Below, one piece after another: positions 38,025-63,610 of a DNA stretch of 64,000 bases; positions within the stretch are counted from its first letter, which is position 1, and each line of letters starts with the position of its first letter. The notes beneath the pieces were generated by a model. That model saw only the letters and a program-made list of their open reading frames with translations, was not told the DNA's origin and ran no database searches. The stretch is from Eukaryota sp. GEM-RC1 (lineage: Eukaryota): assembly GCA_040285855.1 (NCBI GenBank), contig JAUFOQ010000002.1, positions 2,480,001 to 2,544,000 of the forward strand, read 5' to 3'. Both the position numbers and the translations under genes were made by a program.

Positions 38025-39631
38025 TTATTGAATTCTTTGCACATTTGCAGTTAGTGGCTCCCAATTTTTTACAATCGCCCTGTTTGAAGTGTCCGACTCT
38101 ACGGACAATGTCGGTTGCTTCTGTGAATCCTGAATCACGAGATTTGTTTCAGCAGTCATACCAGCAACATTTGCTTCAACGGTTAACAGATTCTGACTGT
38201 CCATTTTAAATCCAACCACAACTCTGACCTTACAAGAACTTACAGGGTAACCAGTTACCTGAAACTCACCAACGTAAGAATTACACAGAGCATTACTCTT
38301 CTCTCCTTGATGAACTCGAATCAAGATACAATCTTGATGAGGGAGAACAGTCTCAAGGTGTCCAGTGTGATGGGCTGGCACACGTGATCCTTTTGGTATA
38401 ATAACGTCAAAAGAACCATCACTCAGTGCAATTCCAAGAGAATGTGCCGTCACTTCACCAAACTTCAGATGAGAAGCCAAAGAAGCTCCAATTGCAACAA
38501 CCTCTTCGGGACTTATACCTGACCCAAGTGGCTGTTGGGGTCTACTTAGAAACTCACAGACTTTCCGTTGAACCACAGGTAGCCTACTGGTTCCTCCCAC
38601 GAAACAGACCTCTTGTATTTCAGCGTAAGGCACATTGGCATGAACTAGACACTCTAGTACCTTTTCAATGGTTCTTTCTACTAAAGGGTCTATCAGCCGT
38701 TCAAATCTAGCTCTAGTTATTGACACCACAAAGTCTTCGTCGTCATTGAAGTTGACAACTACCAAATCAGCAGAACCATTCTCTGGGGTTCCTGATAGCA
38801 TCAATTTAGCCTCTTCACAAGCATGCAACAAGCGATGCATTTGCCTTGCACCCAAGGAAGAGGAGTTAATCCCCATCTTTGCAGTTCCGGTATAACTACT
38901 GAGCTGTACAAGATTCTGTCTATATCCGATCCACCAAGCATGTCATCACCATCCACTGCTAGAATTGAGATATCTCCGTTTTCAATGTGAGCAACACTAC
39001 AATCAAAGGTTCCCCCACCCCAATCGTATACTAGGAGGTTATAATTGTTGAGATCCTTGTGTTTGTCAACAAAGCTAAGAGCAGCAGCTGTAGGTTCGTT
39101 AATGATGTTAATGTTAACAAACCCGGCTTCAGCAGCTGCCACTGTCGTCGCTCTTCGCCTTGGTTCCTGGAAATATGCTGGCACCGTTATTGTGACGTTA
39201 TCGACATTTAGTTGTGGATGTGTTGTGGTGACAACATTTCGCAGATACTTCAGTAGTTCAGTAGTAAGTTCAACAGGTGAAACTACAGAAGCTTTTTGGC
39301 AACGCGATCGCAGGCCTATTTTATCACCATCTGTTGCTAAAACATTATACGGAAAGAAGTCGCTGGGTATTTGAAGAGAAGTATATTCAGAGTATGAAAG
39401 TCCAATGAATCGTTTGAACTGAATGAAAGTGGTGTGTGGATTTTTCACAATTGCGGCTTTAGCAGAGTCCCCTACCAGGGGAAAATTGGAGGAATCATCA
39501 AGAGAGACAACAGATGGAGTGAGACGATTTCCTTGTAAGTTGAGGACAATGTCAGTGGAGTCTGTTTCCGGTCTATAAAGAGCAATGCAACAGGTAGAAG
39601 TTCCCAGGTCGATCCCAAGAGTCCAAGACAT
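38025..39631 (-). CDS. Atypical lid-less Hsp70 (type A-2); one frameshift in an A run near 38878
   Basis: LGIDLGTS, LTPSVV, KRFIG, TVPAYF, NEPTAAA, DWGGGTFD, VGGTSRLP, SBD-beta (VHQGE, VGEF); only ~35 aa follow the last strand. Confidence 0.88.
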
Positions 39632-40310
39632 TATACAAGTTGAACTGTAAATCAGATCCTTGTCAAAACAAGTTGTCACATCACTTGTAAGATCGATCTT
39701 GTATTCATGATGCTAACTGAGATCAGACAGATATCATCTTTAAAGCATCATAGTTGTTGATCCACAATGGAAGTCACTTGCTGTGAATATTGAAAACAAA
39801 ATGTCGAAACTTTGGCAAAACCCAAATATCACTGCTTCATCAATCAGAGAATTCTAACTGCACATGTAGATATTTCAACTGATGCTCGTAAGAAAAGAAT
39901 ATAAAAAGAACATTTATGGTGGACCAATTTCAACTGTACTCAGAATTATTAACAAGAAACAGCTATGATGCTCATTTGAGAACAAACATGTCGAGAACAA
40001 TTATACTCATATACAATTTCAAATTATGTCCGAATTTGGAGGGATTTACGTAGTTGTGTAATTACTGGAATTCGAGGTTGATCATATTATGAAACATTGT
40101 GCAAACTGAAACGGTCAAATATGTCGTTTCAAAACATGTCAAACACTGTCATTTTGTCAATACCTGAATACCTTCAAATTTGCCTGAACAATGTCTTTAA
40201 TACGATTATCATCGTGAAATTAGAACAAATATCACTAACACGTCAACTTGTCAACATGACAAGCGATGAATTCTTCAATCTTTCAATTTTGGACATACTA
40301 TTTACAGTCC

Positions 40311-60100: not shown

Positions 60101-63100
60101 TAAAGAAGTATCCAATTGTGAACCTACGTTGGTTAAGTTTTCTCAAATTCCTCGTGGTTTACTGTCACCTTCTATTTTACATCAAATTAAAAGTTGCAGG
60201 CAAAATTTAAAACAATTGACCTTAGAATTAGATGGTGTCACAATTCATCATTTAAATAGTTTCCGAGAATCTTTCAATGACTTCTTGCACGACTATAATC
60301 ATTTGAAAGAAATCTTGGTGGTTCCTCTGATACCAAACTCTTCTTGCAACTTACTTGACGTCTTGTCTTCTACTCCTTTTCAATTGAAACTATAACAAGT
60401 AGATTTGTTGAGATCAAGGATCGCCCTATTGTACTTCTGTTTCTATCTTATTGTTATTTGAAAGGAATTGGCATTTCCAAATATTCTCTAAATACGACTT
60501 ACTATTACTCTCTTTACAAGGTCAAAAAGCACATTTCCCTAAATGAATTAGTCACGTTCTGGAATGACGAGGTGATCTCTTTTGTCGCAGAGCAAGAGTT
60601 GGCTGAGAAAAGAAAGAAGTTACGATCGTTGAGAAATGAATTGTACGAATATCAAAGTAATCGCCTGAGCTTACACGATTATTTACTTAATTATTTTCCT
60701 AGAGAATTCGTTCGTGTCATTCAGAAAATTGATGAAATTGTTGGTAAATCTGATTGTGACGACGACTTACTTGAACCTTTAGTTAGTGAACTAAAAAGTC
60801 AGTGGAATTCCATTGACTCTTCCGTTAAAATCCTTCATGATGTTAAATTATCAAATAGTTCTTCATTGTTCTCCATTTTGAATGATTCTAAATTCGATGT
60901 CAACCAATTACTAAATTCTAATTCAACCGAATCAATTCAAGCCGTTATTAACTATTGTCTTGCTTTTTCTTTTGCAAAAGGATTAGGATCCAACCAGAAC
61001 TTATTGAAGAGTGAAAAGTTTTTTAGTCTTGCACAGTCTTCTGATGATTATGACCATGACGTTTTGATTTCCTACTGGAAGAAGGAAGTTGGGAAGCATC
61101 TTGACGATTCTCTTAAAAGTAAGACTAAATTGCTAAACAACTCGTTATCAGAGATTCTTAACGATCTTACAGTGCTCCGTCGAATTCCTAACAGTTTATT
61201 GCCCAGCAGTGTTTCTGTGAAAACACGGCAGTTGATTGGATCAATATCTGTTCTGTTGGAACAAGTTGCTGATTGCTCATCACCTTCCGTTTTGGAAGAT
61301 CTGGGTATCAAATTTGAGAGTGTTCACTCTGGATTCAAATCACATCGTCAATTATTCTCCTCTTGTTTGGAACGTCATCCTAGTCATTGTAAATTTTTAA
61401 AATTTCTTACAAGAGCACCCTTTTCAATCCCCGAACTAAGACCTGCACTAAGTTCCGGTCAATTTTGTTCATGTTTTAAACTTTTAATTTGTTTTGCTTA
61501 CGTTAAAGGAATTGGAGTCGAAAAATTAGAAAGAAAATCAGTTGAATTATATGAAACTATAATTTCCCGTAATTCAGCTCTTCACCAGCTCATAAAGAGT
61601 AATCATCTCTTAGATTTTTGGAATTCTGAACTTGTTTCAATTTCTAATCATATTAAGACGTCAAATTTAAAAAATGAAATATTAAAAATGACAACTGAAA
61701 TGGACTCCTTTTCAGAACAATTTCAAAGTTTTCTATCTCCACTACTTAAAAATCGACTTCAAGCAGCTATACAATCAATCAAAAGTTGTGATTCAGATTT
61801 CAATTTGATACAATCATCCTGGGAGCGTTTCCTCTCATATGTTTCATTTTTAAATTTCATTGAATTAACTCCAAATGTTTCGTTATTTCATTCTCTTGCA
61901 AGTCCCAACTTTTCTGTAGGCTTCTTGATCAAATCTCGTAATGATAGTTACTCACCAATCATTGATATTTGTATTGCCTTTTGTTTTACCAAAGGTATTG
62001 GTATTGCCCAGAATGGTAATCAGGTTTACAAATACCTATCACAATGCCCAGCTGATTACGATTACGATCGTCATCATTTGATTGCCTATTGGAGAGATGA
62101 GGCAGTAATGGAGTTGAAAAGGTTTGAAGATGAGGCAGAGCAGTTGAGGAAGAAGTTATTGGCTCAAATCGATCCCATTTTAAAGACTTTAAATTCTGGA
62201 GGGCCTGAACTTTTCAAATTTCTGCCTCCTTTTGACTACCACAGAACACTATTGGCTGCTGAGAATCTTAACGCGGATATAACTGATTGTCATTGGACTG
62301 ACATTAATGATTCTTTTGACAGTCGCCTATCACGATTGAAGAAAAAGGCCTCAACTTTTTGGGAATATTTGTCTTGTCTTTATACAGAAGTTACTTACAA
62401 GAACGTTTCTTATGTTTTTGCTACTTTAGTTAAAACAAATTCTTTCAACCTAAGTCAATTAGAAATGGAAGTTTTCAATCAACAACCTAATGCCAAGGTT
62501 CTTTTACTTTCGTTCTTATCCTTTTGTTTCTCGAACGAAGTGGCTGCCACGCAGAATGTTGTGAAAGCATTTGATTACTGGAATCAAGTAGAGCTCATCA
62601 ATCAAACATCATCAATCCAATCTAATTGTTTGGTGGATTATTGGGATTCCACAATCGTTAATACCTTCACAAAGGATTCTAATTCTATTTATGCAGTGAT
62701 TGAACATTTTCAAAAAGATATTCAGCCGTACTTATCTGATCTTTTAATGTCTATTTTACCAGTAAGCTTTTCTACTAAATTTAACAAAATTCATGAGAGA
62801 CTATTCATGTTACGAAGCTCGGTATTTGTTCAAAACAGAAAGGAATTGAGGTATTTTTGTTCTCTTATTCAAAATCTGTTTGTAGAATTTCGAAATTTAA
62901 CAGAAAAATGTTGGATGGTACTTACTTATGACGAGGAAGATAAGATTTTGTCGTTATTACAAGATCTCAAGACTACTCCAACTTACCCGAATTCGATTTT
63001 TGCATATTCGCAGCGTAATTTTAAAATTCTGGAATTATTGAAATTACACGTTTTACGAAATCACAACAGATCGTCTCAACCTTCACCCAGCTTAGTCGCT

Positions 63101-63610
63101 CCCTTGGAACCTCCTCCACACTCACGTCACTTATTAAAGACAACCAATGCCACGTCATTCGGTGTCACGCCATTCAGTACCATTGATTTAAATAAGTCTG
63201 GACGTAAGAAAAGACAACAGTCTCAATTACTCTACAAAAAAGCTGTCAAGTTCGAAGTTCGTGGGGATTTCTTCAGAGCTAAACAGTACTACATGGAAGC
63301 TGTTGACCATGGACATGCAAAATCCTGGTTTATCCTAGGTTTATTTAGGTCTGGATTACATGAATTACCTTTGGAAAACAAAGCGGCAGCACGTGCTTTA
63401 TTGCGATCTTCTCAATTAGGTTATGTATTAGCTCTCAGGTTGATTGATAAATTGAAAGGAGATGGACCTCCTAGAGAGTCCTCTGAATCTCCAGCAATAT
63501 TAGCTGCAGAACGTGGACTACAACCATATGAAGTTGAGGAGGCGGTTCGTCATTTGATGTTGATGGGTAAAGTTGTGTTGTCCAAAGATGATTGTTCAGA
63601 CTTGACCTAA
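57113..63610 (+). CDS. Degenerate Hsp70/Hsp110-like NBD + 8 helical/Sel1-like repeats + C-terminal Sel1/TPR motifs (type B-2, ~2160 aa if joined); frameshifts near 58780, 59235, 60380
   Basis: IGIDFKST, FLDIGYMCTD, VLLGGFSYVP; motif C(L/I)(A/S)FC(Y/F)xKG(I/L/F)G...(F/Y)WxxEV near 58700, 59208, 59903, 60440, 60952, 61485, 61968, 62512; AKQYYMEAVDHGHAKSWFILG near the end. Confidence 0.82.

Follow-up and report, generated by a model that had tools for sequence, protein, structure and literature searches.

A likely lineage-specific, linked and diversifying Hsp70/Hsp110-like gene pair in Eukaryota sp. GEM-RC1

Results

Gene content and layout of the locus

A stretch of 64,000 nucleotides of Eukaryota sp. 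GEM-RC1 (contig JAUFOQ010000002.1, positions 2,480,001 to 2,544,000; hereafter the window, to which all coordinates refer) carries six genes for divergent relatives of Hsp70 that fall into two types. Type A comprises Hsp70s without the helical lid, and type B comprises proteins in which an eroded Hsp70-type nucleotide-binding domain (NBD, the ATPase domain) is followed by a long repeat array. The beta part of the substrate-binding domain, abbreviated SBD-beta, is present in A only. NCBI names the B-1 model of the window and its paralogues Eukaryota sp. GEM-RC1, which we infer to be the same organism as Skoliomonas sp. GEMRC. The latter is a free-living anaerobic metamonad with 14,268 proteins, whose nanopore assembly was corrected with Illumina reads, according to the accessible part of its description (bioRxiv 10.1101/2023.05.03.539051). 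In the accessible part of the genome paper, Hsp70 relatives are filed plainly under 'cyto-hsp70' (PMC11316075).

26077..27625, minus strand: A-1, lid-less Hsp70 of about 505 amino acids, ATPase motifs intact; no B neighbour
38025..39631, minus strand: A-2, lid-less Hsp70 of about 535 amino acids
40311..43097, plus strand: A-3, lid-less Hsp70 of about 920 amino acids
41673..42860, plus strand: insert within SBD-beta of A-3, 396 residues, a von Willebrand factor A (vWA) domain first, then a further region
43192..47691, plus strand: B-1, eroded Hsp70-type ATPase domain, Ser-rich linker, four repeats and a short C-terminal region
55371..57064, minus strand: A-4, lid-less Hsp70 of about 545 amino acids
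57113..63610, plus strand: B-2, eroded Hsp70-type ATPase domain directly followed by eight repeats and a short C-terminal region

The gene order, strands and short spacings of the two modules given in the original prediction were re-measured and are as claimed. In the first module (A-2, A-3, B-1), the ATG of B-1 at 43192 lies 95 nt past the A-3 stop (43097), and in the second (A-4, B-2) the two ATGs stand head-to-head, 48 nt apart. The orientation of A relative to B differs between the two modules and is not fixed. Moreover, the 48-nt gap loses its value as a sign of pairing or conflict, being ordinary here: the three unrelated divergent pairs checked in the window all have similar gaps (73, 46 and 44 nt).

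The A proteins

The Pfam HSP70 match spans A-1 to A-4 through SBD-beta, and the catalytic motifs are kept in all four proteins: the phosphate-1 motif, DxGGGT (DWGGGT in both A-2 and A-4), GGxxR, and the lysine and glutamate which we take to be the equivalents of Lys71 and Glu175 of Hsc70. All four proteins align to the last strand of the SBD-beta sandwich, which in A-3 is interrupted by the 396-residue insert, and they end about 0-30 residues past that strand. A lid (SBD-alpha) was sought with eight Hsp70 tail queries, whose matches in the window are SBD-beta ends only, with no lid downstream. As judged from these alignments, the A proteins agree with canonical Hsp70 in the NBD motifs and SBD-beta and depart from it in the helical lid, just as had been proposed. 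The vWA domain described as integrated in A-3 is also supported, being matched by Pfam VWA_2 (E 1.5e-4, under the curated cut-off) with residues resembling a metal ion-dependent adhesion site. Pairwise identity among the four A proteins is 28-31%. Among the rows matched when long relatives of A were sought, at least 120, most are ordinary or fused Hsp70s, and none of those listed is named as a skoliomonad.

The eroded ATPase domain of the B proteins

Read through their breaks (with X at each), B-1 and B-2 are 1,499 and 2,165 residues long, and the spliced NCBI model GEMRC1_003744 (P0010, 99-100% identical) corresponds to the second part of B-1. The predicted ATPase domain of B-2 has a local confidence (pLDDT) mostly of 93-98 over residues 1-370, and the B domain model matches the Hsp70 ATPase fold with a Foldseek E of 2e-23. 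However, both proteins lack the catalytic lysine and glutamate, the glycine loop and SBD-beta. On this fold model, B is an Hsp70-type NBD that has lost its catalytic motifs, for which weak or no hydrolysis is predicted, and the earlier description of type B (degenerate NBD, no SBD-beta, long repeat array) is borne out. The root-mean-square deviation of the B model is lowest against closed ATP-state structures (Sse1 and ATP-bound BiP, 3.4-4.1 Å), compared with about 4.5-5.3 Å for most ADP-bound or apo domains, a difference that is weak evidence of conformation.

A profile search with the B domain in 1.84 billion representatives recovered only four proteins below E 1e-30, with 441-738 bits: B-1, B-2, GEMRC1_003768 and GEMRC1_004887 (the latter two, B-3 and B-4). 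Generic Hsp70s and Hsp110s come next, with at most 119 bits. The B domain and the B-1 repeats were run against metagenomes, and a viral scan was made, without yielding a relative. Six profile matches with two NBDs (P0131-P0134, P0141 and P0144), five of them named from plants and arthropods, were considered as A-B fusions and discarded, their scores being the sums of ordinary tandem Hsp70s. In three of these models (P0133, P0141 and P0134, from a sedge, a rush and an amphipod), a degenerate Hsp70 domain stands in tandem with an intact one, which may reflect annotation fusions or a parallel arrangement of active and dead domains.

Comparison of B-1 with B-2 reveals a mosaic domain.

43621..44220, plus strand: lobe-II block of B-1, 600 bp
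57569..58168, plus strand: lobe-II block of B-2, 600 bp

Over exactly 200 codons the two blocks share 93.5% identity, and their ends are sharp, unalignable DNA lying on both sides. The block starts at the position of the EPTAA motif of Hsp70 and ends with the ATPase domain, that is, it corresponds to lobe II. Among all four B proteins the block is 88-93% identical, compared with 24-33% for lobe I in the three B pairs that have it and 13-28% for the 100 residues after the block, except for B-1 with B-3 (56%). Between B-1 and B-2, the block differs at a synonymous proportion (pS) of 0.177 and a nonsynonymous proportion (pN) of 0.036, giving a pN/pS of 0.2. The simplest reading is that lobe II is kept alike because of recent recombination together with purifying selection.

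The repeat array

The number of repeats varies, as had been claimed, from four units in B-1 to eight in B-2, with a spacing of 162-181 residues and mostly 12-32% likeness between units. A model of two units (pLDDT 75) is built of short helices, and each unit combines a single Sel1-like hairpin with a bundle of three helices. In agreement with this, Pfam Sel1 matches B-1 with 37 bits against a cut-off of 30.7, and B-2 more weakly. The B repeats share the Sel1 hairpin with Sel1-like repeat proteins but lack their contiguous tandem solenoid of 36-residue units, having instead one motif per 162-181 residues with helical bundles between. In a fold search, the model of two repeats had no match that reached E 0.001, the top ranks being taken by Sel1 proteins at E 0.26 and weaker, and another fold search returned generic three-helix bundles only (Z up to 7.3), among which the BiP lid (Z 6.6) is not distinctive. 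The repeat profile matched one of 296 other fetched proteins (E 0.026), and the atlas matches for the repeats score under 0.9 and serve as leads only.

A repeat array like that of B-1 and 71% identical to it also follows a kinase fragment in GEMRC1_004495 (P0009), a model without an ATPase domain. Because the same array follows a kinase there, it is a movable module.

Phylogeny and predicted docking

Two quick trees were built, one of 57 rows and one of 30, with 27 rows, mostly long branches, removed for the second; the labels of the references were assigned by eye from search matches, and no skoliomonad is among them. A-2, A-3 and A-4 form one branch in both (SH-aLRT 97 and 98, respectively), with A-1 outside, so that the A genes that form a clade are the three beside B genes and do not include A-1. 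The A proteins do not branch with the rows labelled by eye as HSPA14-like. In the 30-row tree B falls with Hsp110 (support 94, unstarred), and in the 57-row set a tree constrained to hold B and Hsp110 together exceeds the free quick tree, in which B lies apart from Hsp110, by 37 log-likelihood units (approximately unbiased test, p-AU 0.97). A derivation of B from Hsp110 is likely.

The complex of the A-3 ATPase domain (as two chains, split at the intron) with the B-1 domain was predicted with a score of 0.53, whereas the best of three controls reached 0.00; contact agreement between runs is at least 84% and the pLDDT of the partners is at least 76. Of the solved pairs, 51 of 78 reached the mark applied, as did 2 of 108 mismatched pairs, but passing scores of 0.60 or less came from only 5 of the 78 solved pairs and from all 4 passing mismatches. 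The model thus lends weak support to docking between the NBDs of the cognate pair.

Linkage and expression in other Skoliomonas

The 32 Hsp70 rows in the accessible part of Supplementary file 3 of PMC11316075 were sorted by eye on the basis of their first 400 residues. Beyond the Hsp110/Grp170-like rows, nine are degenerate and five are divergent with intact motifs. In S. litria, g8291 (intact) is near g8293 (degenerate), two gene numbers apart, and in RCL, g8656 (intact) is near g8660 (degenerate), four gene numbers apart; before its DVGY motif, g8660 carries a stretch that resembles, by eye, the start of lobe II of B. If gene numbers follow position, the chance of such closeness under random placement is about 0.002 and 0.003. 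Hsp110-like rows exist separately in both S. litria and RCL. The four genes are expressed at non-zero levels, 0.6-34 fragments per kilobase per million (FPKM), compared with 160-530 for the main Hsp70s. The published lists are incomplete, all of the window's genes being absent from them. Also in S. litria, row g6625 appears by eye to be an intact-motif Hsp70 fused to a kinase similar to that of GEMRC1_004495.

Gene breaks, introns and the integrity of the cluster

The breaks in the six genes, previously read as frameshifts, number 15, of which 11 are one-base shifts (seven short, four long) and the other four are GT..AG introns of 27-32 nt; a similar short GT..AG intron is found in the neighbouring S28 peptidase gene.

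27527-27558, minus strand: intron of A-1, 32 nt; plus one one-base shift near the start
Within 38025..39631, minus strand: one one-base shift of A-2, at a G run
40676-40702, plus strand: intron of A-3, 27 nt; plus two one-base shifts, one possibly a 28-nt intron instead
57018-57045 and 56686-56714, minus strand: introns of A-4; plus two one-base shifts
Within 43192..47691, plus strand: two one-base shifts of B-1, one of them in the linker and loosely placed
Within 57113..63610, plus strand: three one-base shifts of B-2

These shifts would be real if the cluster consisted of decaying pseudogenes, and their number (11 per roughly 18 kb of coding DNA, with four housekeeping genes of the window reading through without breaks, so that the shift rate of the cluster is not fully explained) and the retrotransposon inside the cluster would fit such decay. 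However, every shift has a homopolymer run of at least four bases on which it can be placed, although 22% of all positions are near such runs, and the assembly is nanopore-based. Nor do the 18,171 coding nt (in pieces defined between breaks) contain a nonsense codon, where 2.6-10 would be expected under an assumed range of 5-20 substitutions per indel. Moreover, shifts of the same kind occur in the Leu/Phe transferase, hAT and kinase genes of the window and, by eye, in both highly expressed BiP rows of GEMRC, and the pN/pS of 0.2 in the shared B block argues against decay. Pseudogene decay is therefore very unlikely, and the one-base shifts are likely assembly errors. Regarding those BiP rows (g11345 and g5219, in the accessible part of supplement 3 of PMC11316075), both appear to have a wrong-frame start arising from an A-run shift, with the signal peptide lost.

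Other features of the window

The features below lie outside the A and B genes.

48689..54909, plus strand: Ty3-like long terminal repeat (LTR) retrotransposon, inserted between the two modules and not part of the system
15509-16063, minus strand: bacterial-type Leu/Phe-tRNA protein transferase gene in a eukaryote (Pfam E 2e-40), a candidate gene transfer, its frame shifted by one base at a T run
36232-36765, plus strand: small multidrug resistance (EmrE-like) family gene (Pfam E 5e-21), usually prokaryotic
7056-12147: kinase-coiled coil-TLDc-like gene and several leucine-rich-repeat-like open reading frames, some broken at homopolymer runs
21653-23718, minus strand: hAT transposase with a BED finger, with one shift at an A run

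The Ty3-like element has very short LTRs (52 and 78 nt) and an AGAG target-site duplication, and a 26-nt block with AATAAA is absent from its 5' LTR copy. The transposon-rich setting had been taken as a sign of conflict, an argument that fails because repeats make up 48% of the whole Skoliomonas sp. GEMRC genome (PMC11316075, Table 1, in its accessible part).

Discussion

A model for the A-B pair

Taken together, the results point to a likely lineage-specific, linked and diversifying Hsp70/Hsp110-like pair. In our model, which we hold at a shade better than even, B would be a regulator and client adaptor, itself non-hydrolysing, that is dedicated to the neighbouring A, with NBD-to-NBD docking as predicted. 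Neighbouring A and B would dock ATPase domain to ATPase domain, and B would hold a closed, ATP-like shape and control the nucleotide state of A as Sse1 or Ssz1 do for their partners. Lobe II of B would be the common docking surface, kept alike by recombination and purifying selection, whereas the divergent lobe I and the repeats would choose the partner and the target or client, the three-helix bundles perhaps replacing the absent lid of A or the helical clamp of Hsp110. A would be the hydrolysing half, whose open SBD-beta (with the vWA insert in A-3) could bind targets briefly. The outcome would be specialised nucleotide switches for particular clients and no general folding machine.

The heterodimer proposed originally is favoured by the A-2/3/4 clade beside the B genes, the Hsp110 grouping, the neighbour pairs in two other species and the weak pass of the complex prediction. 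Several observations weigh against the model. The docking score may reflect memory of solved Hsp70-Hsp110 complexes, was obtained for the cognate pair only and does not say which family member binds. The free 57-row tree sets B, on a very long branch, apart from Hsp110 among other long branches, so that the Hsp110 grouping stands in the 30-row and constrained analyses only. The random-placement figure ignores that old paralogues can stay clustered without binding, and an intact neighbour is listed for two of the nine degenerate rows and for none of the three in GEMRC, in lists that are incomplete. Moreover, g8660 and g8293 are not among the 150 best B-profile matches, their kinship to B being judged by eye only, and the A-like neighbours in those species are not short, with 800 and 828 amino acids. 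The B-like repeats also stand on a kinase without an ATPase domain, and all six A and B genes are broken in the assembly.

In an unlikely though substantial alternative, A and B would be independent members of a local, fast-evolving Hsp70 expansion, brought together by tandem duplication, and the B fold would be a scaffold or a regulator of housekeeping Hsp70 with a mobile repeat array. The routine head-to-head gaps of 44-73 nt, the differing A/B orientation and the kinase-borne repeats fit it, as do the seven of nine degenerate rows without a listed intact neighbour; and a constant lobe II suits a constant partner such as housekeeping Hsp70 equally as well as A proteins that are 28-31% alike. 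However, A and B belong to different deep lineages, yet they are neighbours in two modules and apparently in two other species, and the three A genes that adjoin a B gene form a clade which the lone A-1 does not join.

A possible defence role and its meaning

The dedicated A-B pair could, in addition, serve in surveillance or conflict, as was originally suggested, although such a role on top of pairing is doubtful. Of the arguments for it, the divergence of 28-31%, the repeat number and the vWA domain stand as observations, whereas those from spacing and transposons fail. In this extension, which does not exclude the model above and to which we give only a low probability, A-B pairs would be intracellular immune receptors like paired nucleotide-binding leucine-rich repeat receptors (NLRs), with viral proteins, or those of ingested bacteria, taking the bait offered by the pocket or the vWA domain of A, and with B relaying through its repeats or linked kinases. 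The low identity of neighbouring A proteins, the variable repeat number and the domain shuffling (the vWA insert, the kinase-repeat fusion GEMRC1_004495 and, by eye, the Hsp70-kinase row g6625 of S. litria) would suit such receptors, as would the low expression of the partners in the other species. Hsp70 domains also recur in predicted conflict systems, according to the accessible parts of PMC7159879, PMC11090510 and PMC8195603. Nonetheless, no TIR, nuclease, pore-forming or STAND domain that could be an output was matched when the A and B pieces were scanned with Pfam and NCBIfam, and the repetitive setting is genome-wide. In its fullest and equally speculative form, skoliomonads would have built paired immune receptors from the Hsp70/Hsp110 couple, a lid-less bait with swappable domains and a dead-ATPase partner feeding kinases; recombination would homogenise the docking lobe of the partner, whose other lobe and repeat array would diversify. 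If true, a protist lineage without known immune receptors would have an NLR-like logic built on an ATPase of the actin fold, and foreign targets would give a handle on infection sensing in free-living anaerobic protists.

Beyond defence, Hsp70s are among the most conserved proteins, and linked, fast-diverging pairs of active and dead members would mean that the way Hsp70 docks with Hsp110 has been put to new use as a modular switch. With its constant lobe II and variable lobe I, the mosaic B domain would be a natural test of partner-choice surfaces. New here are the common lobe II of the four B proteins, the A-2/3/4 clade, the likely Hsp110 origin of B and the repeat of a Sel1 hairpin plus a bundle.

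Comparison with known systems

The literature searched, which left out most subscription papers, contains no description of such an A/B system, in line with the novelty claimed at the outset. The closest parallel is Hsp110/Grp170 (Sse1), a non-hydrolysing Hsp70 relative that faces the active one NBD to NBD, requires ATP binding and not hydrolysis, and uses a helix bundle as an extra clamp (PMC4753570, accessible part). Two of the three tree analyses favour B with Hsp110, and the DIGY motif of B is similar to the DxG(H/Y) of Hsp110. However, B lacks SBD-beta and the single helix bundle, having 4-8 Sel1-hairpin/three-helix repeats instead, and differs in its mosaic NBD, its several copies and its linked, lid-less, divergent partner.

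A second parallel is Ssz1/HSPA14 with Ssb, from the ribosome-associated triad, an active/inactive Hsp70 heterodimer in which the lid-less, inactive Ssz1 docks on Ssb NBD to NBD through interface residues that include S282, D291, R300 and Y351 (PMC8476630, accessible part). In that pair the lid-less partner is the inactive one, whereas here the lid-less A keeps the catalytic motifs; also, A lies outside the HSPA14-like rows and no J-protein gene is seen in the cluster.

Plant paired NLRs, which are sensor/helper pairs, resemble the modules, as far as the sources at hand describe them, in being a linked nucleotide-binding pair with an inserted domain in one partner and variable repeats. Nevertheless, both partners here have the actin/Hsp70 fold and no STAND/NB-ARC NTPase, no TIR or coiled-coil (CC) output domain was found, and the spacing and orientation of A and B are not distinctive. 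Hsp70 NBDs that are truncated or of weak activity also occur in bacterial conflict systems (GAP1-N2 GTPase loci and CnuD of CoCoNuT), in some cases as a pair at one locus or fused to helical repeats, but within operons with GTPases, GrpE or nucleases in the accessible accounts, none of which is present here, and the B profile found no relative from such systems above generic Hsp70s. Thus, on the features compared, the system falls outside Hsp110, canonical Hsp70, Ssz1 and NLRs, and its manner of working would be that of the Hsp70-Hsp110 couple.

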